Virus record (IMG/VR): IMGVR_UViG_3300021516_000010
Location: 1 to 43,465 of that record
Strand: one strand, 5' to 3'
From: a virus
Taxonomy: Duplodnaviria; Caudoviricetes
Length of the DNA stretch: 43,465 nucleotides
Positions 829-20,183 of the stretch are shown piece after piece (the stretch's first letter is position 1; every line of letters starts with the position of its first letter). Under the pieces are notes generated by a model, which ran no database searches, was not told where the DNA came from, and saw only the letters and a list, made by a program, of their open reading frames with translations. The position numbers and the translations under genes are program-made.

Positions 829-1273
829 TGCGGCGATTGCTTATAGCGTTCTCGGTATGTCCGCGTTCATCTGGGACTGGCAGTCCAAATTGAGCGCAGA
901 ACTTTTCAATGTGTGATCGCGCGGTCGTACGCGATACTCCATATTTTTGAGCGAGTGTGGCGCCAGTCCACCCATCACGCACTCGCAATCTTGATGAATA
1001 CGCTGCGACATCGGCGGCGAATCTAGCGTCTACAGCTTCAGTAATGTACGACAAAAGCGGGTGAAATCCAGTCATCACCATATCACGTGTTTGACTTTTA
1101 ACTTCGTCTAAAACGATTCGTCGAGCCTCATCATCGCGCCCGTGCCGAACTGCTTCGACAACTTCGTCTACCCAATCTTCACCACATGTGAATTCTTGAG
1201 TATACTGCGACAACGGCGACGTCGCTGAGTCTAGCTTGATTTCGACTTTGGGTTGGTACGTGGTTAAGCCCAT
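809..1273 (-). CDS. Hypothetical protein with C-terminal HTH
   Basis: 154 aa, overlaps both neighbours; TGATLAQKYGVSRTTARSHI is HTH-like. Confidence 0.6.
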   Translation of the reverse strand: MGLTTYQPKVEIKLDSATSPLSQYTQEFTCGEDWVDEVVEAVRHGRDDEARRIVLDEVKSQTRDMVMTGFHPLLSYITEAVDARFAADVAAYSSRLRVRDGWTGATLAQKYGVSRTTARSHIEKFCAQFGLPVPDERGHTENAISNRRNEKLVK

Positions 1274-2109
1274 ATTTCTCGAAGCTCAAGATTACTTAGT
1301 TTGCGTTGGTCATCTAAGAACTGAATGAATTTGTCAGGCGTCGCCCACTCTTTATGGACGCCATTTGGTTGTAGAAACTCAAGGTCGAACAGCAACATAG
1401 ACCGGTGTTGCTTCTCAATCTTCACATTGTAGTCGTAGACACACCGATGAGCTCCTTCGAAATCGCGATCGTACAGATGCATAGACCCGGCGGTGTAGTA
1501 CATATTACCCAATGTGAGATTCGCTAAGCGCTCGTCTGTTTGGCGTAACTCTAACAACATGTGGAACGACATGCAAGAGAACGAGAAAATGTCGTACGCC
1601 CATCCGAGCCAGAGATCGCTCGATCGCATATTGTATACCGCATGCAATGCGCCATCGCGGATGATCCATTGGATAGTCAATGAGCAAGGCAAGTCGCGAG
1701 TGTCTGGTGGATTCGCTACATCCCAAAACGTCAGCACGGCTTGACGAGTGTCATGATCTCGGCGAAGCGCTCGAAGAATTCGTTCTCGTTGCGCTACGTA
1801 ACGCTTTCCATACGCTCCGAAAAACGTCACTCCGTCGTCTGAATACGCTACGATGTTTTTCGACACTTCGTGAAGTGTGGCTACATCATCGCGACCAGTA
1901 AGCATCCACCAAGCTTCGGTGAACGCGAATTTCAACGAGAGCTTACGTTCAGGTAAGACGATCAGCGGATCGTTCATATCGACGACCGCGCGGCCTTGAA
2001 GCACTTCAAGAATTGGGAGTCCTCGCGGCACTCGCGCGGCGCCAGTGTTGAGCGTTAATTGGAGCAAGTCGCGCCAAATTTCAGTAACGGAAATAGGTCG
2101 AAGTTTCAT
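1264..2109 (-). CDS. Thymidylate-synthase-fold enzyme, probable dCMP hydroxymethylase (or dCMP methylase)
   Basis: TS motifs GAYG, DTRQA, DLPC (catalytic Cys), MRSSD, GSMHLY. The specificity position reads AYD (Asp) instead of the PFN (Asn) of dUMP-specific TS. Confidence 0.8.
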   Translation of the reverse strand: MKLRPISVTEIWRDLLQLTLNTGAARVPRGLPILEVLQGRAVVDMNDPLIVLPERKLSLKFAFTEAWWMLTGRDDVATLHEVSKNIVAYSDDGVTFFGAYGKRYVAQRERILRALRRDHDTRQAVLTFWDVANPPDTRDLPCSLTIQWIIRDGALHAVYNMRSSDLWLGWAYDIFSFSCMSFHMLLELRQTDERLANLTLGNMYYTAGSMHLYDRDFEGAHRCVYDYNVKIEKQHRSMLLFDLEFLQPNGVHKEWATPDKFIQFLDDQRKLSNLELREIWA

Positions 2110-2111
2110 GA

Positions 2112-3296
2112 TTAGATTTTGGTGACTGTCATTGCGGCTTTGTGCATCTTCTTGAAGACGACATTCGAATCACACATTTCGCGAGCTTGTTCCCACGCTT
2201 TCGTTCGATACTTTTCGTAAATGTCTTTGTGTGCTAAGTGCTTCATCGCCTCAATCGTCGCCATCATACCTTCGCGAGCGCAAGAAACTACGGCGAGTTT
2301 AGGAGCACAATGTTTGATCCAATGAGAGTCGAAGACGCCGACCGTTCCAACCGCAATCGCTTCAGCCATGGAATACTCCATCATGTTCTCTCCGTAATAA
2401 GAAGCATCGAGATGATAGAAGTCTGCGCCAAACATCGACTCAGCGAGACGAGGCAACCCGTCTTCGCCCATTCGAGTATACGGACCATACACCAACAGTT
2501 TGTCCTTGGGTATCGGCTTAGTGTGCTTTTCAACGATGCCGTTCTTGGGATGCACTTCGAAGATGCAATCGCGTTGCTTATCTCGAATCGCTGGGTCTTC
2601 ATAGAAGAGTTTAAGCGAACCAAGCGATCGTTCAACGCCTCGCATTTCGACGGCGAAGCCTGCATTTCTAAACTTATCAAAATGATCGACTAATCGTTGA
2701 GGGTCTTTGAATGTAGCGAAGCGCCCGAAGTACGTGATACACTTCTTCTTTTCTTCGAATGACCGCCACATCTTTCGGTAACCGTCGAAGTTGAAGCCAT
2801 TACCCACAGTCATGATGGGCAAGCCGGGAACGAACTCTCGCACCATTGTAGCATATTTGCACGTTTTCGTGAAGGTGAAAGTAGCATCGACATTCCGCAA
2901 CAACTCAAACATTCGGTAGTTACGATTGATCGAATGAATCTTGTGGTCGTTCTGATGGGCGATCTTAATGGGCTTAGTGATCTCTTGCATCATCTGCAAG
3001 AACCGAGTACAGAAGATTTGCGAATGATTCTTCGAAGGCCATGATTGAAAGTAAACGATGTCGTACTCTTCGTTGATCTTCTTAGCCGTAGCTGACGCAG
3101 TTGACGCATCGAACGTTCCGGCAAGTTCTAAAGGTTGGGCCAGTCGTCGTGGCCAAAGTTTGTCGGTGCTTGCGTAAACATCGCACACCATTTTTTGTAA
3201 GCGATACCACGCTTGTTCTTCAATGACGTAACGGGTGACGCCGCAGCCTTCGACGCCGCGACCGAGAATTATTGCTATTCGAGGTTGTGTTTTCAT
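2112..3296 (-). CDS. agt: DNA alpha-glucosyltransferase-like glycosyltransferase (GT-B)
   Basis: N-terminal IILGRGVEGCGVTRY matches T4 AGT (ARGLEGCGVTKF); also YFGRFATFKD and MEYSMAEAIAVGTVGVF (cf. EYTHLE...GTIPVF). Confidence 0.82.
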   Translation of the reverse strand: MKTQPRIAIILGRGVEGCGVTRYVIEEQAWYRLQKMVCDVYASTDKLWPRRLAQPLELAGTFDASTASATAKKINEEYDIVYFQSWPSKNHSQIFCTRFLQMMQEITKPIKIAHQNDHKIHSINRNYRMFELLRNVDATFTFTKTCKYATMVREFVPGLPIMTVGNGFNFDGYRKMWRSFEEKKKCITYFGRFATFKDPQRLVDHFDKFRNAGFAVEMRGVERSLGSLKLFYEDPAIRDKQRDCIFEVHPKNGIVEKHTKPIPKDKLLVYGPYTRMGEDGLPRLAESMFGADFYHLDASYYGENMMEYSMAEAIAVGTVGVFDSHWIKHCAPKLAVVSCAREGMMATIEAMKHLAHKDIYEKYRTKAWEQAREMCDSNVVFKKMHKAAMTVTKI

Positions 3297-3334
3297 AGTA
3301 AGGAAGTTGTCTAGGTGAGTGTTATAATTCGAAT

Positions 3335-3739
3335 TTAGCTAAAAGGAAACTCTTTCTTCATCAGATCATCAAATGATGGAGGGGACCAGTCGTCTGGTTT
3401 TCTCAAATCGAAGGGGTCATTCCGCTTCGATTCTTGCGCAGACGTCACTCGCTGCTTTTTCAAATTCGCTTCATGAACGCGCCTCCAACACTCGTTCAAT
3501 GGAATTTCAAGAATCGCGGCCATGCCACACAACACATAAATCAAATCGACGATCGCATCAGCCGCATCATGTCGTCCAAGCTTTTGGCTGAACAGCGCAT
3601 CGATCAACTCGGATCGCTCCTCATCCATGTGAATTGCTTTCTTGCGTACTTCATCCCACATCGTCGTTTCGTCGACGATCACATCATTCAATTGAAACTT
3701 AGCGCGGAACTCTCTCACATCATCATAGAACGTTTTCAT
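3335..3739 (-). CDS. MazG-like/PRA-PH all-alpha dNTP pyrophosphohydrolase
   Basis: EExxEL...DAIVDLIYV...VHEANLKK...KPxDWxPP motif set. Confidence 0.85.
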   Translation of the reverse strand: MKTFYDDVREFRAKFQLNDVIVDETTMWDEVRKKAIHMDEERSELIDALFSQKLGRHDAADAIVDLIYVLCGMAAILEIPLNECWRRVHEANLKKQRVTSAQESKRNDPFDLRKPDDWSPPSFDDLMKKEFPFS

Positions 3740-3749
3740 AGGTAATCAG

Positions 3750-4055
3750 GTGGCTTGGTCATTATTTGGTCATTATTGTGGCTTGGTCATTATATCCAGT
3801 GAAAATGGACATTCATAAACCGTTGGATATCAATAGCATTTTGAACAGAATGTCCATTATACCATTAAAATATATAGAGTCCTCGTACACACACTCCCCT
3901 GCTTGCATGCAGGTAGGGGTGGGTGCCTGTACAAAGAACTTCGAAATGAATGGACAAATGGACATAATGGCCATGATCCGCTTCAAAGCATTGGTGATTA
4001 GTGACTTAGACGACTTGGTCATTATTTGATTCAGTGTCCATAAGTCCATTATTTG
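3750..4055. repeat. Iteron-like TTGGTCATTAT repeats, candidate replication origin
   Basis: TTGGTCATTAT at ~3755, 3766, 3783 and 4015; related TCCATTAT and inverted AATGGAC copies; AT-rich patch; immediately downstream of the primase-helicase gene. Confidence 0.5.
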
Positions 4056-4259
4056 GGCCCTCCTTGTGCACGGTAGTGCGGACCTGCTCCCCAGCGAGGG
4101 TGTGCGACCCGTACCAGCACGACCCGCTCCCCAGTGCTGGTGCAGGAGGGTCGTAGGGTTGAAACTTTGCTCGAACCAGTCATTTCTGGCCCTCAGACTG
4201 TCGCCTATGATCTCGAACTGATTGTCCATATGGATTTATTAGTTTCTAACTAAGGCCTC

Positions 4260-6473
4260 TCAGGCCTTCTTCCGTGCTTTTGCCTTAATTTGTGTCATTT
4301 CTGACACTTGAGGTTGCAAGTTGTCGCAATATGCGATGAAATCTTTCTTCGTTATCGACCACATTCTGAGGCCGTCTTTTCGTATCTGAGTCAATGGAAC
4401 GCCTTGGCCAGCCAGTTGGGCAATGAAGCGCCCCACACCTCGCGGCGTATAATGCGAAGTGAGAGCTCGCATTCCGTCATCTCCCGCCATGTCTCGCAAC
4501 ATCGTACTAGCGTTGCCAATCCATTCATGCGTCTTGAACTCGTTAAACTGCGAGGACATGAACATGTGAAATGCTTCATAGAATGAATGCGAAGACGTTA
4601 CTTCTTTCGCAGCTTGGAGCAATTCAGGATGATGGAAGCTCGTCACGCCAAAGCGACTCGCTTCGATCGTAGCGTCTGGCGGCTCCCAATCTTCGAGCCA
4701 TTTCGCAAATGCCGGCAGTTCTTCAGCCAATGCTTTATCGAGCTTATGGAAATCGTAACCCTCTCTCGTCGGCGCCGCTTTATACAAACTCACTTTGTCT
4801 AACAGCGACTGTTCAATATCAGGTAGAATGCGTAACGATTCGTTATCCAAATTGCATGTCACGATGATACGACCGAGCCATGGGATCATGCGAGCTCGTT
4901 TGAATTTGTCGTCGAACAAGAAGAGTTGGTTGGCCGGCATCTTTTTGATCAACGCTGAGTAATTGGCGTGTGCTTTGTCCTGGCCCGGCCTCGTATCGTC
5001 AATCGTCCAAATGGGAACTGCGAACAAGTGCCCAGTGAATCGCGTTTCGCCAAGTAGATACGACGAACAATCAGACGAGCCACCCGCGAGTCTCGCTATC
5101 ACTACGTTGCTCATAAACGTTTTACCGCTCTGCACTTCACCTGCTATAAATACTACCTGGCCCGGCAACGGACGCTTTTCCTTGCACGACACGTAGAATC
5201 TTTTCAACCACGACAAGTAAAACTCCAACTGCGTAGCTCCGTGGCTCGCATCGATTTCATCAAAGAACCCGTCTAAGTAGTGGGCTAGCGTCGAGAAGCC
5301 GTCGCCCCACTTTTTGCACTTCGCGGCAGGTAGGATCAATTGGACAGACGCGACATTTAAGAACCGCTTCATCTGTACTAAGTTAATGCCCGTTGGAAAG
5401 TGTGGCATAGGCACCGCCGCATCGACTCTCATCGTCGTTTGCACCGTCGCTAACGCTTTTTCCATTTCAGAAAGTCCGCCTCCTTCTGGCGCCTCATGCG
5501 TCAGGCCACGTTGCTTAAGTTGGAGCTGAATATCTTGGCGACTGAAGTCAAACCAATCGTTGCCGAGCTTTGTCCAATAGGTCATTCCATCGAAGAACGT
5601 ATCTTCAATAGCGCCACCGACACGGTTGTCTTCGTAGTTTTTCGTGAAGTTGGATCCAAAGATTTCAGACCACGATACGAAAGACCTTGAGCCGGTGAAA
5701 CATTGCATTCCAGTTTCACGGACGATTGCGGCGGTATGGTTATCAGCAGACGCATCCCAGAAGCGAACGCCACGAGCTCCCAAATCAAATGGGCCTACCC
5801 AACGATTTGGGAAGCGCGATTCAAGCTCTTCGGCGACAATCCGAATCGGGAGAACCGGCGCTCCGCGCGGCCTCCATTTGACTTTGGACGAAGCTTCAAC
5901 CAAAGCGTGCATCAAAAGCGAATGTTGAATAGGCGTACCTTCTTCTAATTTCGTCCAATGAAGCGGTGCGCAATAGAGAAGCCCAGTGTCTTTTAGAGCG
6001 CTCTCGTCTAAGCCTTCGCAGATATGCCGGCAGCGAAAGTCTTTAGTCAACTGTTGAAGGAATGCTACGTGAGCTGGGCCGTGCACCATGATGGGCTTTT
6101 CAAATTCGTAGACAAAGCGTACTCCATTTGAAAAAGTCTTGGCGATTAAAGTAGGGACTGGCACGCCGCGGCGTTGGCATTGGCGAACCACGAACTGGCC
6201 CACCTCCTCTTGTGATTCTTCGACTGGCGAATCGAAATCAATCACCAACACTCGCATGGTGTGAGCAGGATTTGAGGAGTTGACGCGAGCGTTTGCTGCG
6301 ACTCCTTCATACGGCGAATACACCTGCCATTGAGTATTTGGGTCGGTGATCCACGTAGAGAAATCTTGCTTTGACTTTAAATTGGCTGGCCACGACGAAC
6401 GCTTCCATTTCGTAAGGCTCGAAGATTCTGATGTAGATGACGAGACATTTGCGAGAGTGAATAATTGCAACAT
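4260..6473 (-). CDS. Primase-helicase (AEP-like N-terminus, SF3/DUF5906-like P-loop C-terminus)
   Basis: VIDFD acidic motif; Walker A AGEVQSGKT, Walker B WTIDD, IIVTCN sensor; 737 aa. Confidence 0.75.
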   Translation of the reverse strand: MLQLFTLANVSSSTSESSSLTKWKRSSWPANLKSKQDFSTWITDPNTQWQVYSPYEGVAANARVNSSNPAHTMRVLVIDFDSPVEESQEEVGQFVVRQCQRRGVPVPTLIAKTFSNGVRFVYEFEKPIMVHGPAHVAFLQQLTKDFRCRHICEGLDESALKDTGLLYCAPLHWTKLEEGTPIQHSLLMHALVEASSKVKWRPRGAPVLPIRIVAEELESRFPNRWVGPFDLGARGVRFWDASADNHTAAIVRETGMQCFTGSRSFVSWSEIFGSNFTKNYEDNRVGGAIEDTFFDGMTYWTKLGNDWFDFSRQDIQLQLKQRGLTHEAPEGGGLSEMEKALATVQTTMRVDAAVPMPHFPTGINLVQMKRFLNVASVQLILPAAKCKKWGDGFSTLAHYLDGFFDEIDASHGATQLEFYLSWLKRFYVSCKEKRPLPGQVVFIAGEVQSGKTFMSNVVIARLAGGSSDCSSYLLGETRFTGHLFAVPIWTIDDTRPGQDKAHANYSALIKKMPANQLFLFDDKFKRARMIPWLGRIIVTCNLDNESLRILPDIEQSLLDKVSLYKAAPTREGYDFHKLDKALAEELPAFAKWLEDWEPPDATIEASRFGVTSFHHPELLQAAKEVTSSHSFYEAFHMFMSSQFNEFKTHEWIGNASTMLRDMAGDDGMRALTSHYTPRGVGRFIAQLAGQGVPLTQIRKDGLRMWSITKKDFIAYCDNLQPQVSEMTQIKAKARKKA

Positions 6474-7484: not shown

Positions 7485-7669
7485 TTGGTTAGAGTGATGT
7501 TGAATTCTTTAGCCCATTCGCGAATTGACCGCATAGACGCGTGTAGTCGCTTTTCGACGATTTTGCATCGATAACCACTACGACGTAAGTCGTTAGCTTT
7601 TAGTACGATAGCTCTACGCTCCTCGTCTGTGCGTTGCGAGTTATGAATTAGGATTCGATTGATGCTCAC
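7481..7669 (-). CDS. Small hypothetical protein, HTH-like
   Basis: 62 aa, coupled to the methyltransferase stop; basic helical sequence ending SIREW. Confidence 0.55.
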   Translation of the reverse strand: MSINRILIHNSQRTDEERRAIVLKANDLRRSGYRCKIVEKRLHASMRSIREWAKEFNITLTK

Positions 7670-8835
7670 GGTAGTAGTGCGAAGTGTTGATTGTGGTTAC
7701 GTTGAAGAGCAGCCTCGCCTTTTTCAAAAGGAAGCTCGCCGTTGAGATATTTGAGCACGCCTGTCGCCATGTCACGAGCAGTGACAACCGGGACATTCTG
7801 GCAGACATGGTTCAAGTTTCGTTTGGGGTCTAACAGCTCGAAGTCGTACGGCATGCCCATCAACGACATGCATTCGCGGTAAGTGAGGTGCCGGTCTTTC
7901 GTTGGGTGAGTGAGCAGCGTAGGGAAGTGTCCGACGAACGCTCCGATTTTGTGCTTAGGTATTTCAACGCCTCGCCTCATGACGTTCTTGCCTGACGCCA
8001 ATTTGGCATCCATCGCTTGACACCTCGCTGCGGCTTTTTCGTAACCCTCTTTCTTTAACCACTTTGCGGCTGGCCCAAATGTTCCGTCCTTGTCTTCAGT
8101 CCAATGGATCGGACCCATCGTCCTTGGAATAAGCGCGTGGAACTGTTTGTGAGTAATACCACCTTCAAGTTTCTCAAGAACGTAGCGATACATCGGGTCA
8201 TCTGACGGAGTCTTCTCATTTGTCACATCATTTTGAATAGCAGCGCGAGCTTCGCGATCGTGGCTAGAGAAGAATTGCTCAATTGTTTGCTCAGCTCGCT
8301 TGACGAATGGAAGCACAGGGATGCGATTCTTTTCGCGCCACAAGAAGTAGAACGAGCGCTCGCGGACTTGGGGCAACCCGTGCAACCACGACTGCGTCCG
8401 ATACAATGTCATCGTATACCCGTTAGCTTTAGCGATCGCTCGCATATTTGCTACGACTGGCTCGCCTAGACGTGTAGCGAGACACGGAGCGTTTTCACCC
8501 CACAGAACGCGTGGCCGAAGGTTTTCCACCACGTACTTCGTACTAATAGTCAACCAATCGTTTGTTTTTGAATCAGAACTAGGTGATGGAGACAGCGTGG
8601 ACAAACCGGCACATGGGCACACAGTATTGACCACATCGACTTTTGGGAGCTTGGGCACGTTGTCGACGTCGACTTGATAGTATGGAACGTCTTTGAAATG
8701 ATGGCGACAGTGCGAATCGTTTGATGAGAACGGCGAGTACGAGAGGAAGAAACTCGGGTCACTCCCGAACGCTTGAACTTGGCCGATGGTTTCTCCACCG
8801 ATGAGTGGAATGATAGAGGCGTGTTTGATGCTCAT
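7666..8835 (-). CDS. Divergent C5-cytosine DNA methyltransferase-like protein
   Basis: Motif IV CPCAGLS, VI GENAP, VIII QVRER, IX LTYRECMSLMGMP, X QNVPV; the motif I FxGxG is replaced by IPLIGG. Confidence 0.8.
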   Translation of the reverse strand: MSIKHASIIPLIGGETIGQVQAFGSDPSFFLSYSPFSSNDSHCRHHFKDVPYYQVDVDNVPKLPKVDVVNTVCPCAGLSTLSPSPSSDSKTNDWLTISTKYVVENLRPRVLWGENAPCLATRLGEPVVANMRAIAKANGYTMTLYRTQSWLHGLPQVRERSFYFLWREKNRIPVLPFVKRAEQTIEQFFSSHDREARAAIQNDVTNEKTPSDDPMYRYVLEKLEGGITHKQFHALIPRTMGPIHWTEDKDGTFGPAAKWLKKEGYEKAAARCQAMDAKLASGKNVMRRGVEIPKHKIGAFVGHFPTLLTHPTKDRHLTYRECMSLMGMPYDFELLDPKRNLNHVCQNVPVVTARDMATGVLKYLNGELPFEKGEAALQRNHNQHFALLP

Positions 8836-14573: not shown

Positions 14574-16010
14574 TTAAAAGGAAATTCCAGAGGTAAGGTC
14601 TCCGTCGTTGAGGAGGTTGAGATTTTGAATTTTGCGACGGACGGCTTCACACGCTTGCTCTTCGATAGTGTCGGCGGCGAAGACGATTTTTTGAATGCTC
14701 TTCGACAGTCCTCCTTGGCGCCACACTCGTCCGATGGCTTGCTTCAATTGCACCGCCGAATAGTTGGGTGAGATAATGGAGAACCTTGGATGGTCACCGC
14801 TGAGATCATGTAAGTTGACGCCAGTGCCACCGGCCGCGATATTGCAGACAATCACACGGACTTCGTTTGATTGGAATGCTTCAATATTCTTTTCACGTTC
14901 GTCGCCACTCTGGCCACCTGCGATTTTTGATACGCGAATCTTTTTCTTCGTCAACCGTTCGGCGATAAGTTCAAGTGAAGGTGTGAAGTTGACGAAGATC
15001 GCAACACTGTGCCCATCTTCAAGAGCGTCCATGCACATTTCAACGTAGGCGCTGCACTTCAACAATTCAGCTCGTTGGCGAGCTTCAAGGAGGATCGCGA
15101 AAATCGACTGACTGTAATTCATGGTGCGCTCGTCCAACTTCGCTAAAGCTTGTTGCATATCAGCATAGACGTGATTAAGCTTCGAAGTCTCGCCGTTCAT
15201 TCCCGCAGCGACTGCTGTGACCTGACTTTCAGGGAAGCGGTCACCCAGTTCTGAGATGCGAATGCGGTAACCGCGGTTGGGAAATAATTGCTTGTGCAGA
15301 GCAAACATGATTGCCTTGTTTCTCGCATCGTTAGCGTCGAAGTCAAGGCCACCCCATTCGTTATTCTCCGCGCCATGAGACCTGGCCCATTGGAAATAGT
15401 TGGTGAGGTTGTGCAGACCGAGTGAGAATCCAATTGCTCGCATTTCAAGAGGAGACACCGCTAACGTCGCAGACGCCATGTAGATTCTCACGCCCTGTTG
15501 GCGAGCTGCGATCAACATTTTGGCGTTCTGTGAAGAATGAGCTTTGCAACGGTGAGCTTCATCAAACACCACCAAGGCGTCAGACGGGACGTGCCACACA
15601 AACTTTCCGTCGGCTTCAGACTTCGTCGGAGTCACCCATTTGAGATGCGGGAGGTTGCACCCTCTGAGCTTTTCGTAACCGACCACGTCAATCGCGGTGA
15701 GTTTGAATTTTGCAATGACTTTGCGCCATTCGGGAATCACAGACTTCGGACACACCACGAGCAAGCGGAGTTTCAATTCGCGAGCCACGCCACAAGCGAC
15801 GTAAGTTTTTCCGGTGCCAGTGTCTGATGCATCGACCGTCGCGTTGAAGGCCGCGATCGCTTTGGCATTGTACCACACTGCGGGTATTTGGTAATCCAGA
15901 AGGCCGGAAGGATTGACACGTGACGGGTCTGAGACGTTATACTCGACGCGGCCAAACGGGGACTGCGATGGAGCCGCCACGCCGGTGAAAGAGGAGAGAG
16001 ACATTTTCAT
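14574..16010 (-). CDS. SF2 (SNF2-like DEAH) helicase
   Basis: DTGTGKT, VVCPKS, FDEAH, SAT, AGGTGVNL, QAIGRVWR motifs. Confidence 0.93.
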   Translation of the reverse strand: MKMSLSSFTGVAAPSQSPFGRVEYNVSDPSRVNPSGLLDYQIPAVWYNAKAIAAFNATVDASDTGTGKTYVACGVARELKLRLLVVCPKSVIPEWRKVIAKFKLTAIDVVGYEKLRGCNLPHLKWVTPTKSEADGKFVWHVPSDALVVFDEAHRCKAHSSQNAKMLIAARQQGVRIYMASATLAVSPLEMRAIGFSLGLHNLTNYFQWARSHGAENNEWGGLDFDANDARNKAIMFALHKQLFPNRGYRIRISELGDRFPESQVTAVAAGMNGETSKLNHVYADMQQALAKLDERTMNYSQSIFAILLEARQRAELLKCSAYVEMCMDALEDGHSVAIFVNFTPSLELIAERLTKKKIRVSKIAGGQSGDEREKNIEAFQSNEVRVIVCNIAAGGTGVNLHDLSGDHPRFSIISPNYSAVQLKQAIGRVWRQGGLSKSIQKIVFAADTIEEQACEAVRRKIQNLNLLNDGDLTSGISF

Positions 16011-16058
16011 AAGGAAGAGGAAACGATACTAATTGGATTGAACGAGATGTAAACTGAA

Positions 16059-16084
16059 ATGCGTTGTCGGATGCGCATCCCCCG
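16059..16084 (-). ncRNA. Compact H-type pseudoknot element, copy 1
   Basis: CGGG-GG-AUGCG-CA-UCCG-ACAA-CGCAU; both stems pair, and copies 2 and 3 covary. Confidence 0.6.
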
Positions 16085-16093
16085 TTGTGAGTG

Positions 16094-16330
16094 TTAATCA
16101 AGGTCTTTCGTTTGGCACTCTTCGCACCATTGGCCGCCACCTTGCAACATGGAGAGCGGGAAACGTTCGCCGCAGTCGCGGCATTTGCATTCGATTTGTG
16201 AAAGCCACAAATCTTTACCGACGCAAAGACCGGCGATGTCAGCCGGAATAACTTGGCCAGTCGAGAGTTTCACAGCGCGTTCGCCTTGTGCGTTTTTGAT
16301 GATCTTGAACGACGGAGTAGTGTTTGTCAT
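16094..16330 (-). CDS. Small Zn-finger protein
   Basis: CRDC...CEEC; first gene after early promoter 1. Confidence 0.7.
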   Translation of the reverse strand: MTNTTPSFKIIKNAQGERAVKLSTGQVIPADIAGLCVGKDLWLSQIECKCRDCGERFPLSMLQGGGQWCEECQTKDLD

Positions 16331-16352
16331 ATTTTTGTTTTGTTAGTGTTGA

Positions 16353-16440
16353 GTGGCAGCGGCCACGATCAATATCTAACACACTCAAATCCTGCGTAAA
16401 ATCAATTATGCATATTTGCGCATTTAAGCAACGTACGGGC
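16353..16440 (-). promoter_or_regulatory. Repeated early promoter 1 plus +1 hairpin
   Basis: TTTACG-N16-TAGATA, upstream TAAATGCG..ATGCA box, hairpin GTGGC-CGCT-GCCAC; homologous to 18123-18210 and 19991-20077. Confidence 0.65.
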
Positions 16441-16665
16441 CAAACTCGTACTTCATACAAACTGGCCCGTACGTTCCGGTGTATGTGGAGTCCTATTGGA
16501 AGCGAGCGTCCGTGAGGCTCTCCGTGAGGTTGGTGAAGGACCGTGCCGGGCGATGGTGGTCAATCCAACGCTTCAACCAAGACTCACGACGGTCAGTTTC
16601 TTTAATAGCAAACCGACGGTCAGTGACAGTGGCTCGTGGGATGAGACGAGAAACAGTGGGAGATT

Positions 16666-16848
16666 TCATACGAGATTTTTGAGTTCGATTTTGCTGACGA
16701 GAGTGCGAGTGGAGACGAGGCCGATGCGTTCTTGAAGAATCCGACGAGCGGATTTCGGTGTGGATGCTTCGATAGTTGTGGTGCCGGTGGATCCAAATGG
16801 CTTCGACCATTTGAAGGTGTAGGAGTATAAAGGGCGTTGACGTTTCAT
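16666..16848 (-). CDS. Small basic hypothetical protein
   Basis: 60 aa with a CA-rich leader. Confidence 0.5.
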   Translation of the reverse strand: MKRQRPLYSYTFKWSKPFGSTGTTTIEASTPKSARRILQERIGLVSTRTLVSKIELKNLV

Positions 16849-16931
16849 AGCGTATGGGATGTTGAGGTTGTCGTTGAAGTGAGAAAAATAAAAGCACCAA
16901 CTGAACGTTGAGATTCAGTTGGCGCTCTGGG

Positions 16932-17270
16932 TCAGTCTGCGCGTTTCATCCAGTTTTTCAACCGGGTAATCCACGGCAGCTTCATAGGCACCGCATTCAC
17001 GGCGTCCAATTGGTTGTCCAATACGTAGACGCTGTTCGACGTAATGACGATTTTCGGAGCGACTCGCGTTATCGCTTCAACTCGAGCTCGTCGAAGTTCG
17101 ACTTGCTCGAGTGTTTCGATGCGCGGAGTTTTTGCGACGACCGTCGTCACTGCGAGTTTCGTAGGCTGTTGCACGAATACCATCGGTTGGCTCGCTGTGT
17201 GACGCAGAGTGAGTGCGGCAGCTGAGAGTTTATGACGGGTCGTCAACGGCATTGCAGTTTTCGTTTGCAT
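16932..17270 (-). CDS. Hypothetical protein
   Basis: 112 aa, CACACCCAC-ATG leader following pseudoknot copy 2. Confidence 0.6.
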   Translation of the reverse strand: MQTKTAMPLTTRHKLSAAALTLRHTASQPMVFVQQPTKLAVTTVVAKTPRIETLEQVELRRARVEAITRVAPKIVITSNSVYVLDNQLDAVNAVPMKLPWITRLKNWMKRAD

Positions 17271-17298
17271 GTGGGTGTGTGGTGTGTTGTATGTTGTT

Positions 17299-17324
17299 AC
17301 GCGTTGTCGGATGCGCGTCCCCCG
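17299..17324 (-). ncRNA. Compact H-type pseudoknot element, copy 2
   Basis: CGGG-GG-ACGCG-CA-UCCG-ACAA-CGCGU. Confidence 0.6.
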
Positions 17325-17335
17325 TGTTGAAATGT

Positions 17336-18079
17336 TTATGCAGACAGGGCGGGTGTATTGATACCAACCACTGAGTCTACGAGACGGTAGAGGTTGTCGC
17401 CACGGCGAGGAAGATCAAACACGTTGACGGACTTGAAGAAATCCGTGTAAGCGTTGAACAAGCGCCACATCGTCTTGCCATCGGCTGAGAATTCAGGATG
17501 ATCAGGAGTCCTCCACTGCTTGAGGATGTGTGGAACATCCGAGGCGCTGATGACGCTTTGGTCGATAGACTGGATCAAAATGTCGTGGGCCATCGAGTCG
17601 TTGAGTTCGAATTGACGGTAGGCGAGGAAGCGGTCGTCTTGGATTTTGTAGTCGCCCATCAGTTGTTCAACCACCGTTTCAACCTGCTGGTCGAGGCGAA
17701 GGTCGATTTTGCTTGTGTGACGTTCAGTGAACTTACGTTCGCCGCTGAAGATGCCGTTGCTGCACACCATCACTTGGCTACCAGCGACGCCACCAGCTGC
17801 ATACGTTTTGTCATGGGAATTGCGAACACCGACGACCAGTTGGAAGTCCTTGTTCGCATGGTCTTTCTTAGTGACGTTGATGCGGCCAAAATAACGTTTG
17901 TCGTTGTGGCTGGTCGTGTGAGAACCGCTGACGACTTTGAAGCCGCGGCGGACGATGGTTTTCGCGAACATTTCAAAAAGTTCGTGGTGAGCGACTGGCT
18001 GCCAAGTTTTCGTAGCGTGTGGCAACTTAATAGCAGCCAATTGAGTGTGTGTAAGGGAACGAGGAGCGTTGGTTTTCAT
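17336..18079 (-). CDS. DUF932-like protein
   Basis: TWQPVAH, GVRNSHDK, G.QVMVCSNG.F, HT, MWRLFNAYT motifs. Confidence 0.8.
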   Translation of the reverse strand: MKTNAPRSLTHTQLAAIKLPHATKTWQPVAHHELFEMFAKTIVRRGFKVVSGSHTTSHNDKRYFGRINVTKKDHANKDFQLVVGVRNSHDKTYAAGGVAGSQVMVCSNGIFSGERKFTERHTSKIDLRLDQQVETVVEQLMGDYKIQDDRFLAYRQFELNDSMAHDILIQSIDQSVISASDVPHILKQWRTPDHPEFSADGKTMWRLFNAYTDFFKSVNVFDLPRRGDNLYRLVDSVVGINTPALSA

Positions 18080-18088
18080 AGGATCGGA

Positions 18089-18120
18089 TGTTGATGTTTT
18101 GTTGATGTTTTGTTGATGTT
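18089..18120. repeat. 11-bp tandem repeat (TGTTGATGTTT) x~3 in a 5' leader
   Basis: Read directly between promoter 2 and the DUF932 start. Confidence 0.85.
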
Positions 18121-18122
18121 GA

Positions 18123-18210
18123 GTAGCGTCGGCTACAAACGGATACTAATAATTTACGCAAGAATGTAAAATCAATTGTGCATTCTTACGCATTTAGTCG
18201 GCGTACGAGA
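18123..18210 (-). promoter_or_regulatory. Repeated early promoter 2 plus +1 hairpin
   Basis: TTTACA-N16-TAGTAT; hairpin GTAGC-CGAC-GCTAC starts 7 nt after the -10. Confidence 0.7.
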
Positions 18211-18225
18211 GGTTGTTCGTACGTT

Positions 18226-18723
18226 CTAACCTATGTAATAACCTAGCCATTCGGGACGCGACTGAGCTTTAGCGTATGACAAGCCCAACCCTGCGATTTT
18301 TTCGACTGCGTAAAAGGCGCGATACGCGTCAACAGTATCCTCACGCTTATACGCGTCTGGCATGCATTGCGGCGGCAAAGTGAACGCCGCGACTGGGAGG
18401 TCGGGTCGATGTAGGTCTAACCATTCAACGACTGAGCGTGTCTTGTGGCGACGTCCGTAACGCTTTTCATACTCGTCAAGAATACTAAACGCGTGTTTGA
18501 CTAACCAATCATAGTTATTCGTAGACGCTCGCGCCCAAATAGTCGATGGATGGTTTGTGTGAGTTCGCTTATACGGCGCAGACCCGCCGTTCGACCAATG
18601 AGCTGTCGACAACATCTGAGCCGATTCGATTCCCATCTTTACTACGTGCTTGTCGCACAAGTAACTAGCGGCGACATTTGGATGTGGATCTAAAAAGAAG
18701 ATGTTCATGGTGTTAGCCGGCAA
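18226..18723 (-). CDS. Pyrimidine-dimer DNA glycosylase (DenV/Pyr_excise)-like protein
   Basis: MNIFFLD..P...A..LCDKHVVKM..ESAQMLST...YK.TH.NHP...W...NY.WL...PQCMPD.Y; probable start at MNIF. Confidence 0.8.
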   Translation of the reverse strand: MPANTMNIFFLDPHPNVAASYLCDKHVVKMGIESAQMLSTAHWSNGGSAPYKRTHTNHPSTIWARASTNNYDWLVKHAFSILDEYEKRYGRRHKTRSVVEWLDLHRPDLPVAAFTLPPQCMPDAYKREDTVDAYRAFYAVEKIAGLGLSYAKAQSRPEWLGYYIG

Positions 18724-18946
18724 TAGCCATTAGAAACTCACGGTTGCGAGACCGTATGGTCTTATGGATGACTTGATGTGAAAGCTTCAAGTCAGAAGCA
18801 AGACGGTCGACCGCGACTTGCATCGCAGACGTTAGCACTGGGTTCTTCCCCAACAAGTGAAACGAGCGAGTGAGTACATTTGACACGTCGGCGACGTTGG
18901 TTGACGTCAGTAAGACCGAAAGAGCTTGAGCGAATGAGTTTTTCAT
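18713..18946 (-). CDS. Hypothetical protein
   Basis: 77 aa, ACTCATATG start. Confidence 0.6.
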   Translation of the reverse strand: MKNSFAQALSVLLTSTNVADVSNVLTRSFHLLGKNPVLTSAMQVAVDRLASDLKLSHQVIHKTIRSRNREFLMAIAG

Positions 18947-18962
18947 ATGAGTATGTTGAGAG

Positions 18963-19163
18963 TTACGCCGCGCAATCGCCGTCGCAAGTTTCCTCTAGAC
19001 TTGGAAGTTCGGGAAGTTGGATAGTCGTCAATATGCGAAGCCCATAGTAATGATTGACTTGCGTGATTTTTGAAAGTCCGCATTCTGAACACTTACCGAC
19101 GTGTAAAACGTCGACTCCGTTGAATTCTTTGCGGTAGTGCGTAGGCTGTAATGAATTTTTCAT
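18963..19163 (-). CDS. Small Cys-containing hypothetical protein
   Basis: 66 aa with CSEC...C...C; ACTCATATG start. Confidence 0.6.
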   Translation of the reverse strand: MKNSLQPTHYRKEFNGVDVLHVGKCSECGLSKITQVNHYYGLRILTTIQLPELPSLEETCDGDCAA

Positions 19164-19174
19164 ATGAGTGTTGT

Positions 19175-19199
19175 GCGCGTTGGAGAGTCGCGCCCCTCT
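19175..19199 (-). ncRNA. Compact H-type pseudoknot element, copy 3
   Basis: AGAG-GG-GCGCG-A-CUCU-CCAA-CGCGC; stem sequences differ from copies 1 and 2 but pairing is retained. Confidence 0.6.
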
Positions 19200-19221: not shown

Positions 19222-19968
19222 TTACTTCAACAAGCCGGTGACACCGTTTCCAACTTTATCGTGGAGGCTCAGTGAAGCGCCATCCAATTTGCCTTGAGCG
19301 AAAGCGTTGTGGTCGAATGCTTTCTTAGACGCCTGTGTGACAGTAACTCGGAACGTCTTGTCGACGTATTGATCTACTACTTTTTTGACGTCCACGAGAA
19401 CCAAAGCATATCGCGAAGTGGAGTCGGCGTTAGCCGCGGCCATCGCTGCAGATTTCGCTTCACGGTTTCTTTCGACGAAACCTTGACGAAGGCCGCGATC
19501 GTATCCACGTTGAAGATCAGCATTCCACTTTTGGCCGGTGCGCTTGAGGTAACGCTTCATGCCAGAGAAGAACGCTTCACGGAGTTTGCCGTAGAACAAC
19601 ATAGCACAGGCGACTTGGTCAGCTTGGCCAATGTAGATCACCTTGAAGAATTTCTCAGGGCGACCGTTAGCATTCTGAGAGTAATAGTGAGACTTCAACA
19701 TGCGGATGGGCAGCATTTCCATGATGATCACCATGATAGCATTGTCACTGTAATGTTCGCGGCGGCCAAATTCAGAAGCATCATGCATGATGTCGTCCAT
19801 TGACGTTTTGCGGTCCATCACTTCAACTGCGTCAATGCCGTGCTCCGTCATAAGACGTTGGGCGGCGGCCATAGCCGTCTGCATTTCAGCGTCTGTAGCG
19901 CCACCAGCGGGATCCGCCATGGCCATGAGCTTTTTCAGTTTTTCGATGAGTTTGGATTTGTCGTTCAT
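19222..19968 (-). CDS. DUF2786-like protein
   Basis: N-terminal IEKLKKLMAMA...AT.AE...A...AQRLM..HGI; C-terminal AF.QG..DG. Confidence 0.75.
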   Translation of the reverse strand: MNDKSKLIEKLKKLMAMADPAGGATDAEMQTAMAAAQRLMTEHGIDAVEVMDRKTSMDDIMHDASEFGRREHYSDNAIMVIIMEMLPIRMLKSHYYSQNANGRPEKFFKVIYIGQADQVACAMLFYGKLREAFFSGMKRYLKRTGQKWNADLQRGYDRGLRQGFVERNREAKSAAMAAANADSTSRYALVLVDVKKVVDQYVDKTFRVTVTQASKKAFDHNAFAQGKLDGASLSLHDKVGNGVTGLLK

Positions 19969-19990
19969 ATTTTCGTTTTGTTAGTGGTGA

Positions 19991-20077
19991 GTGGCAGCGG
20001 CCACATACGGATACTAACAAACCGCGCAGGATCGTAAAATACTTTATGCATATTTACGCATTTAAGCAACGTACGGG
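19991..20077 (-). promoter_or_regulatory. Repeated early promoter 3 plus +1 hairpin
   Basis: TTTACG-N16-TAGTAT; hairpin GTGGC-CGCT-GCCAC; leader nearly identical to that of promoter 1. Confidence 0.7.
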
Positions 20078-20183
20078 ATTTCCCCCACACGTTGCTTAAA
20101 CTGCTCGTACGTCGACTGGCTCTCGCTAGATAATAGCCAACACACTAGATAATAACGGCGCTTCGCTGGTCAAAGCCTTTCGC

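Follow-up and report, generated by a model that had tools for sequence, protein, structure and literature searches.

A compact, covarying pseudoknot at the gene boundaries of prokaryotic viruses

INTRODUCTION

What purpose might a string of some two dozen bases serve when a virus repeats it three times on one strand, each time just past the end of a different gene? The question is raised by IMG/VR record IMGVR_UViG_3300021516_000010 (Caudoviricetes), all 43,465 bases of which were analyzed here and are referred to as the window. The record has an identical short repeat at both ends, and carries terminase-like, structural, polymerase and helicase genes. Among sequencing runs, the best match to it is a lake-water metagenome, possibly its source; no RNA run is listed among those that contain it, a result with no bearing on expression. 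An initial annotation took the three strings to be repeats of a cis-acting RNA pseudoknot. They are present exactly as reported, on the minus strand, at 16059–16084, 17299–17324 and 19175–19199, and they begin 9 nt past the stop codon of a 78-aa open reading frame (ORF), 11 nt past that of a DUF932 gene and 22 nt past that of a DUF2786 gene, as had been noted. With the boundaries used here, copy 1 (16058..16084) lies between the 78-aa ORF and a helicase gene, and is followed by UUCAGUUU and a promoter-like site; copy 2 (17298..17324) lies between DUF932 and a 112-aa ORF; and copy 3 (19174..19199) lies between DUF2786 and a 66-aa ORF. The statement that no U-tract follows fails for copy 1, where UUCAGUUU has five U in eight bases.

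Comparison with other genomes places the strings in an uncatalogued, well-supported RNA family that occurs in viruses of many bacterial phyla and in the record of an archaeal virus. The cis-acting RNA that had been supposed is the most likely explanation: the family has the form of a covarying, sense-strand pseudoknot, seated just past stop codons.

A PSEUDOKNOT WITH TWO CROSSING STEMS

The family consensus, NNG-GG-NNGCG-CA-UNN-NACA-CGCNN-R, describes a motif of 24 bases. In the predicted fold, a 3-bp stem 1 that includes a G-U pair and a 5-bp stem 2 are connected by a GG loop, a CA loop and a NACA loop. A descriptor search, run on loci found with sequence patterns, on two relatives of the phage and on the window, collected 199 instances: 164 viral, 30 from genome contigs, 2 from metagenomes and the 3 in the window. 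All but two of these (197) fall into 112 groups with unrelated flanks. About 15 of the 24 positions are nearly invariant; the loops were held fixed in every search pattern, and so their invariance is only partly tested. Two details of the initial description do not carry over to the family: stem 1 has three pairs rather than four, the fourth being unpaired in 54 of 90 sequences, and the CAA linker is not fixed, loop 3 usually being UACA (146/199).

Its claim that both stems covary, on the other hand, holds in three separate comparisons. The two outer pairs of stem 2, which were left unconstrained, are both Watson–Crick in 111 of 128 distinct contexts and not in 17, against a chance expectation of 1 in 16, and C-G, G-C, A-U and U-A all occur there. 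A 127-sequence set was then used from which matches with a broken inner free pair, or with one broken and one wobble pair, had been dropped, and to which the window and its relatives had been added. Among 121 sequences of standard length, the first pair of stem 1—the base before the G run and position 13—is G-C in 99 and A-U in 18, with four exceptions (117/121 paired), and the top three pairs by mutual information with average product correction are predicted pairs. When a non-standard middle base was forced upon stem 1, 21 matches were found: a compensating partner is present in all nine that have an intact stem 2 (C-G in eight, A-U in one), but in only one of the twelve that do not (Fisher p = 3e-5, with some of the nine related to one another and duplicates among the twelve). 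The G-U pair is retained in 9/9 of these forced variants although G-C was permitted.

When stem 2 was itself left free (44 of 64 parts scanned), it proved intact in 103 of 124 distinct matches, its core being GCG/CGC in 97, GUG/CAC in 4, and GCG/UGC and CAG/CUG in 1 each. An alignment of 90 sequences has two-sided changes in seven of the nine pairs, and shuffles and slides fall far short of that; these sequences were chosen by descriptor, and so the result leans toward structure. The G run was also considered as an internal Shine–Dalgarno sequence, and this was rejected: variants with ACG, GCG, CCG or GAG retain stem 1 yet lose GGGGG.

The covariance model that had been proposed as a check was built from these 90 sequences, none of them from the window, and it ranks the window copies first to third among seven window matches (E values 2.6e-6, 4e-5 and 0.18). 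A strict H-type descriptor finds exactly these three in the window, within 3.1 kb, on a single strand and all intergenic; it finds five unrelated matches over both strands of 81 distant loci totaling 1.55 Mb. Loop 3 of the window copies is one base longer than the family norm, which is why an exact window-copy pattern had no match in viral contigs. Copy 3 diverges further, with GAG/CUC as stem 1 and a lone A as loop 2. Folding with a tool that handles only nested pairs predicts stem 2 in all three copies, with z-scores of only −0.8 to −1.3 that contain no pseudoknot energy. The local GGAUGCGCAUCC hairpin, which had been feared to account for everything, is not the predicted nested fold; among the window copies, a palindrome is present in copy 1 only. 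There, nested folding can lengthen stem 2 into a hairpin of 8 bp, in competition with stem 1.

On these comparative grounds, the motif is a sense-strand H-type pseudoknot with two crossing stems and compensatory changes in both, and the structure is well supported. Its orientation, its spacing and its retained G-U pair indicate that it is probably an element of RNA rather than of DNA.

DISTRIBUTION

A pattern derived from the copies found 130 stretches in 28 of the 64 parts of IMG/VR (about 280 estimated). A strict pattern found 30 stretches in 596 Gb of prokaryotic genomes (185,579 genomes), with one or two matches each, and 27 of the 33 matches there keep both free pairs. These carriers are mostly short contigs of metagenome-assembled genomes (MAGs) labelled Verrucomicrobia, Chloroflexi, Bacillota, Cyanobacteria, Deltaproteobacteria and others, and their binning may be wrong. 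As judged from the databases searched, then, the motif is nearly confined to viruses and almost missing from host chromosomes. Three of the carriers have names: Stenotrophomonas phage Silvanus, Rhodococcus phage Shagrat and, with two copies inside a duplicated block, Methanosarcina virus MetMV; Silvanus and Shagrat are cultured, and make the motif testable now. Plasmids searched with a single 36-nt query gave no match, and copy 2 of the window gave, among isolate phages, one weak match only, in a coding region. The idea that the small contigs derive from microviruses or RNA viruses was entertained and rejected; the two inspected of six, L212 and L215, resemble fragments of larger phages and contain, by eye, helicase and nuclease ORFs.

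The neighbors of the motif have little in common. Among 87 neighboring proteins, picked from loci L082, L083 and L162–L238, 33 match PHROG families—chiefly RecE/RecT, helicase, single-stranded DNA-binding protein or unknown—and no gene class is common to either flank.

The motif had not been recognized as a named RNA family, and Rfam 15 bears this out: there is no gathering match in the window, and none at E ≤ 10 over any copy. There is no match over the motif in 20 canonical loci, either, with the proviso that very short motifs can escape, and the comparison, which included STAXI, preQ1, SAM-II, guanidine-III and type III antitoxins, matched none. A literature search that included motif strings found no description, although the alignments of Fremin 2023 (PMC10690425) could still list the motif; four supplementary files of that study contain no match, and passages of the Minerva preprint, Weinberg 2010 and Weinberg 2017 do not describe it. 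The motif is too short for RNA surveys seeded with BLAST.

Two other features recur beside some copies. In a subgroup of six loci (L200, L238, L270, L271, L286, L188) the word TAAAAACTAG stands next to the pseudoknot, on one or both sides, and is possibly a second signal. In four others (L203, L205, L230, L448) long, low-complexity, CAC-rich tracts lie 3' of the motif, and no ORF start was called within 80 nt.

PLACEMENT BETWEEN GENES

An ORF-closing stop codon lies within 60 nt of the motif in 189 of the 199 instances. The distance from that stop is 5–12 nt in 149 of the 189 and under 5 nt in none; some copies are 20–45 nt away. An earlier, nearest-stop rule made two calls under 5 nt, and both of those copies have another stop 6–17 nt off. 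On the other side, where a Shine–Dalgarno sequence leads the next gene, the motif ends 10–17 nt 5' of the start in 53 of 76 copies and never closer than 10; for the 98 copies without a Shine–Dalgarno sequence the median is 23 nt. An ORF start is found within 45 nt downstream in 168 of 195. These distances, read from sequence, support the view that the motif is wedged between the footprints expected of terminating and initiating ribosomes. The dnaX slippery site is followed by a 5-nt spacer, and recoding stimulators act at the mRNA tunnel entry, according to passages of PMC8861025; by that geometry, the 5-nt floor agrees with the edge of the ribosome's mRNA channel. The floor is not specific to one role, because any structure that survives termination would show it.

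The spacing usual for recoding pseudoknots, about 5–9 nt after the A-site codon, is found here too. Readthrough and frameshifting were rejected, nonetheless, for there is no fixed frame and no frame bias (frames 0, 1 and 2 occur 40, 29 and 43 times in 112). The stop codons before the motif are UAA in 64, UGA in 26 and UAG in 17, and no shared slippery site was seen when the last 12 nt were inspected by eye. A ribozyme behind the motif was likewise rejected, there being no Rfam match. The motif is not part of an intrinsic terminator: only 20 of 199 instances have four or more U among the 8 nt that come next. Terminator-like hairpins stand behind 0 of 195 copies, versus 27 of 324 control gene ends.

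In the window, each copy follows the first gene of a promoter unit, as the initial annotation had said of early transcripts, and the spacers are rich in C/A and poor in G. This would suit a signal of the nut or put kind that prevents termination, or blocks Rho, in early operons, but the family as a whole is arranged differently. A gap of at least 90 nt, with room for a promoter, precedes the upstream gene in only 19 of 85 (crude ORF calls); the motif recurs between consecutive genes in several genomes; it occurs in 5' leaders; and it is present in an archaeal virus record. First-gene placement is thus not general, and we regard antitermination as very improbable.

The leader copies have particular bearing on function. 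In MetMV they have no upstream ORF, and follow a TATA-like box in a divergent gap. The copy in L463 has no upstream ORF, either, and follows a predicted promoter, TTGACA-17-TAAAAT. Those in L309 and L235 are weaker, and the promoter scan made no call at L309. In L211, the motif lies 7 nt 5' of a tRNA-like RNA, and one copy in L220 is followed by a promoter-like site.

Several surroundings deserve mention in their own right. The tRNA-like RNA of L211 (2880–2992, minus strand; ~115 nt) combines a T arm with an acceptor stem of the alanine type (G3-U70, by eye); it was missed by ARAGORN and has only weak tmRNA and mascRNA matches in Rfam. The L235 copy is part of an array of 13 tRNA genes, five of them serine (900–5660), and lies between tRNA-Asn and tRNA-Ser. 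The Silvanus copy is 38 nt from the stop, after another hairpin and an AU-rich linker; a longer conserved module, in which the stop is followed by a branched hairpin, then an AU-rich linker and the pseudoknot, is found there (L470:1129–1237) and in L198 and L259. In MetMV (L471), different H-type pseudoknot candidates occupy the next intergenic gaps (4497–4525 and 5039–5067), and a hairpin lies at about 4760–4785; all three precede CGAAG and a ribosome-binding site. The other MetMV candidates suggest that several pseudoknot families occupy such seats at gene boundaries.

A POSSIBLE ROLE IN mRNA DECAY

The reading that we favor, tentatively and short of an even chance, is that the motif serves in mRNA as a compact roadblock that shields the downstream cistron from 5'-to-3' decay, by RNase E scanning or by RNase J. 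The terminating ribosome would unwind structures any closer to the stop than 5 nt, which would be why the motif keeps that distance, and it would end just outside the next initiation site. Following an upstream cut, or where it lies at the very 5' end of a transcript, the motif would hold up RNase E/G scanning or RNase J digestion, and early cistrons might then decay more independently of one another. The near-invariant bases of loops and core could form base triples that stabilize the very short stem 1, and gene shuffling at the repeats would be a by-product.

We favor a roadblock because of the leader copies, the lack of copies followed by terminators, the need for crossing pairs, and hosts that have RNase J or RNase E/G. 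According to parts of PMC9943677, scanning RNase E bypasses plain hairpins but is hindered by H-type pseudoknots, including one of 8 bp, and RNase J1 is blocked by exoribonuclease-resistant RNAs (xrRNAs), as described in parts of PMC8374639. Carrier genomes at 21 of the 30 prokaryotic loci were tested: RNase J scores over the cut-off in 16 of the 21, and in the remaining five RNase E/G is over the cut-off in three, with a split match in a fourth. RNase J as the sole target was rejected, there being none in 3/3 Verrucomicrobia MAGs tested (incomplete genomes), and the motif being present in a Stenotrophomonas phage.

Much can be said against this reading. Passages of PMC9943677 report that protection grows with length, that it is only modest for an 11-bp pseudoknot, and that composition has little effect; with 8 bp, the motif should thus be a weak obstacle to RNase E, and its sequence conservation is unexplained. 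If it is a roadblock, that conservation must stem from tertiary contacts, and this is a weak point. The firm leader copies are few—two are clear, those of L309 and L235 less so—and their promoters are predicted only. The RNase content is weak evidence, because MAG contigs may be mis-binned, and to our knowledge nearly all prokaryotes carry RNase J or RNase E/G in any case. Copy 1 and one L220 copy precede promoter-like sites, and so the next gene may not need the motif. The L211 copy, before a tRNA-like RNA, suits 3' protection of the upstream message, and the tight anchoring to stop codons equally fits 3' protection or a role on the ribosome.

Action on ribosomes is a lesser possibility than the roadblock: the pseudoknot might sit at the mRNA entry of a terminating ribosome and insulate against scanning re-initiation, in the manner of ribosome termination structures (RTSs), or provide a place for 30S subunits to dock, as an S1 standby site or enhancer. 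The hard 5-nt minimum, the peak at 5–12 nt after the stop, and the snug fit against the next ribosome-binding site are all as this would have it, and conservation of sequence across phyla would make sense if the target were itself conserved, as the ribosome is. RTS structures are centered 5 nt after stops and curb re-initiation, according to passages of PMC7518266, and in those of PMC7708055, S1 binds H-type pseudoknots and tisB standby requires a pseudoknot. Leader copies have no stop codon in need of insulation, however; the L235 copy in the tRNA array has no ORF start close behind; and certain copies lie as far as 20–45 nt from the stop. The archaeal virus record counts against S1 docking, since archaea, as far as we know, have no S1.

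Protection from the other direction is unlikely, in our view, though it shares some of the same support. The motif would act in the manner of repetitive extragenic palindrome (REP) elements as a 3' barrier against 3'-to-5' exonucleases such as PNPase and RNase II/R, and more product of gene 1 would be made than of gene 2. Anchoring in hosts without Shine–Dalgarno sequences is tighter with respect to the stop of the upstream gene than to the start of the downstream one; the L211 copy directly precedes the tRNA-like RNA; window copy 1 is followed by a U-rich tail and a promoter-like site; and REP hairpins near stops stabilize upstream mRNA (PMC12306157, in part). Against these, leader copies have nothing upstream to protect, the motif never stands before a terminator-like end (0/195), and the conserved pseudoknot pairing goes unexplained because a plain hairpin suffices for that job.

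Some of the conservation would be natural if the motif were a minimal aptamer, or the binding site of a conserved small molecule, ion or host protein, that tunes early expression. Its layout is akin to that of small riboswitch pseudoknots; some 15 of 24 positions are near-fixed; the GCG/CGC core is kept in 97 of 103 when left free, across many phyla; and in some copies the 3' strand of stem 2 adjoins or touches the Shine–Dalgarno sequence. Such conserved motifs typically perform biochemically demanding jobs, as parts of PMC5737381 put it. The overlap with the Shine–Dalgarno sequence is not conserved, however, nor is there a gene class common to the flanks, where the 33 of 87 neighbors with PHROG matches are mostly unknown or concerned with recombination and replication. 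No riboswitch family matched in Rfam, and the loop invariance was built into the search patterns, and is partly tested only. We think such a binding site improbable. Doubtful, too, is the notion of a universal viral gene-boundary device with a target conserved from bacteria to archaea, either the mRNA channel of the ribosome or a small molecule. Were that so, ribosomes would be handed between early genes, or the infected cell sensed, whatever the host, by one of the smallest natural functional RNA folds.

GENES AND REPEATED BLOCKS IN THE WINDOW AND ITS RELATIVES

The copies belong to three units on the minus strand, each headed by a repeated block of about 104 nt that is a putative promoter; next come a first gene, the copy and another gene. 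Unit 1 begins with the block at 16337..16440 and the 78-aa ORF (16094..16330), which has two CxxC pairs and only weak HypA/zinc-finger matches, below cut-off. Past copy 1 is a promoter-like site, TTTACA-16-TAGTAT (16026..16053; 9 of 12 in the promoter scan), and then, starting 48 nt from the copy, an SF2 helicase gene (14574..16010). The promoter scan finds equally many sites in shuffles; the hexamers and spacing at 16026..16053 match those of the unit 2 site, TTTACA-16-TAGTAT at 18143–18170. That site is within the unit 2 block (18107..18210), which precedes DUF932 (17336..18079), copy 2 and the 112-aa ORF (16932..17270); this ORF starts 28 nt past the copy and has a terminator-like hairpin and U run at its 3' side (16891..16928). 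The unit 3 block (19975..20078) has TTTACG-16-TAGTAT and then a short 5' hairpin, and is followed by DUF2786 (19222..19968), copy 3 and, 11 nt past it, the start of the 66-aa ORF (18963..19163).

The three blocks resemble the PeSL cassettes of T4-type phages: an upstream inverted repeat, a conserved TAAATGCG...ATGCA segment, promoter hexamers and a short 5' hairpin. Similar blocks are found in the relative L083, and in a close relative genes are exchanged between them. The leaders in the window lack Shine–Dalgarno sequences and are AC-rich, like the Verrucomicrobia copies; the polymerase, as a guide to the host, has matches at 28% or less.

Close relatives were few: among the 80 loci of the metagenome scan (28/64 parts), two are close relatives, a single-protein search for DUF932 loci gave no match, and alignment searches with helicase and DUF932 gave distant viruses only, all without the motif. 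In a phage about 92% identical to this one, no difference is listed over copy 1, though its flanks vary. Contigs of that relative end at the motif, and a 32-nt contig has about double depth, from which it follows that the motif is repeated there. Gene order around the motif has changed, so that DUF932 appears to have a copy on each side (order deduced from contig ends). Relatives whose helicases are 75% and 55% identical have two copies and one copy, respectively, after other genes. One copy in L083 has a mismatched first pair in stem 1, and the first gene of the second unit in L082 has no copy after it.

Reshuffling of gene order at repeats and promoter blocks in these relatives, for which PeSLs set a precedent (PMC2839356, in part), raises the thought that the primary role is at the level of DNA, as a boundary for recombination or cassettes. 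We give this little credence. In most carriers the stretch examined contains a single copy; covariation keeps pairing rather than identity, with G-U retained 9/9 where G-C was allowed; and on the sense strand the spacing tracks the stop codons and the ribosome-binding sites.

Other observations concern the phage at large. A pyrimidine-dimer glycosylase (DenV-like, PF03013; 18226–18708) is encoded in the early accessory region, and by eye L082 has a similar gene in the same region. ORFs at 1264–3296 and 7666–8835 appear by eye to include a thymidylate-synthase homologue, a glycosyltransferase and a methyltransferase, identities that suggest DNA base modification. Near the genome end, positions 1–180 contain a GCGTGA tandem repeat and CGTACG palindromes.

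COMPARISON WITH KNOWN SYSTEMS

By the criteria tested, the motif is not STAXI, REP, PeSL, a terminator or a recoding signal. The comparisons that follow draw on selected parts of the papers cited. STAXI (RF01728), much like the motif here, is a pseudoknot that recurs in two or three copies close to DNA-handling or antirestriction genes, but in tandem units, often with UUCG loops, and in Enterobacteriales (PMC2864571). Our copies are whole genes apart, and have no UUCG. PeSLs are repeated regulatory cassettes in early accessory regions where genes shuffle, and the ~104-nt blocks of the window are alike in this. A PeSL is a sigma70-like promoter with a terminator stem-loop, however (PMC2839356), and the pseudoknot has neither.

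The operator of T4/T2 gene 32 (PMC3014915) and the tisB standby site (PMC7708055) also combine an H-type pseudoknot, an unstructured leader and a start codon. Each serves one gene and one protein, and lies 67–100 nt upstream; our motif precedes unrelated genes, and adjoins the ribosome-binding site instead. It shares with RTSs and REPs its seat a few bases past the stop, and with that seat the candidate roles in re-initiation, stalling and mRNA stability; like an RTS, it places a stable structure directly after the stop, in gaps of at least 25 nt. RTSs are a trend in folding energy, without sequence, and REPs are hairpins of host chromosomes (PMC7518266, PMC12306157). The motif differs in its fixed sequence, its crossing pairs and its near-confinement to viruses, and the one or two matches in each of 30 stretches among 185,579 genomes are not those of a palindrome with many copies per host chromosome. 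Should the motif act on ribosomes, it bears directly on how the genes of operons are coupled or insulated.

The closest functional parallels are obstacles to RNA decay. H-type pseudoknots of like size (BWYV, 8 coaxial bp) protect downstream sites from RNase E scanning in Escherichia coli reporters (PMC9943677); these were placed by the experimenters, and the passages concerned describe no natural phage family dedicated to such obstacles. The xrRNA-Ds of plant viruses are viral, intergenic pseudoknots as well, 5–20 nt before a start, and their proposed role is to shield the coding RNA downstream from 5'-to-3' digestion (PMC6299227, PMC8374639). They belong to eukaryotic RNA viruses and are larger, with P1 and P2 helices and a pseudoknot that encircle the 5' end as a ring. 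Here, conservation is limited to 24–26 nt and two stems, with no additional conserved helix in the flanks: a bare H-type fold of 24 nt, in prokaryotic DNA viruses, with hypothetical exonuclease resistance. If it does block decay, the motif would be a natural prokaryotic counterpart of the viral xrRNAs, and a portable, 24-nt insulator for synthetic operons.

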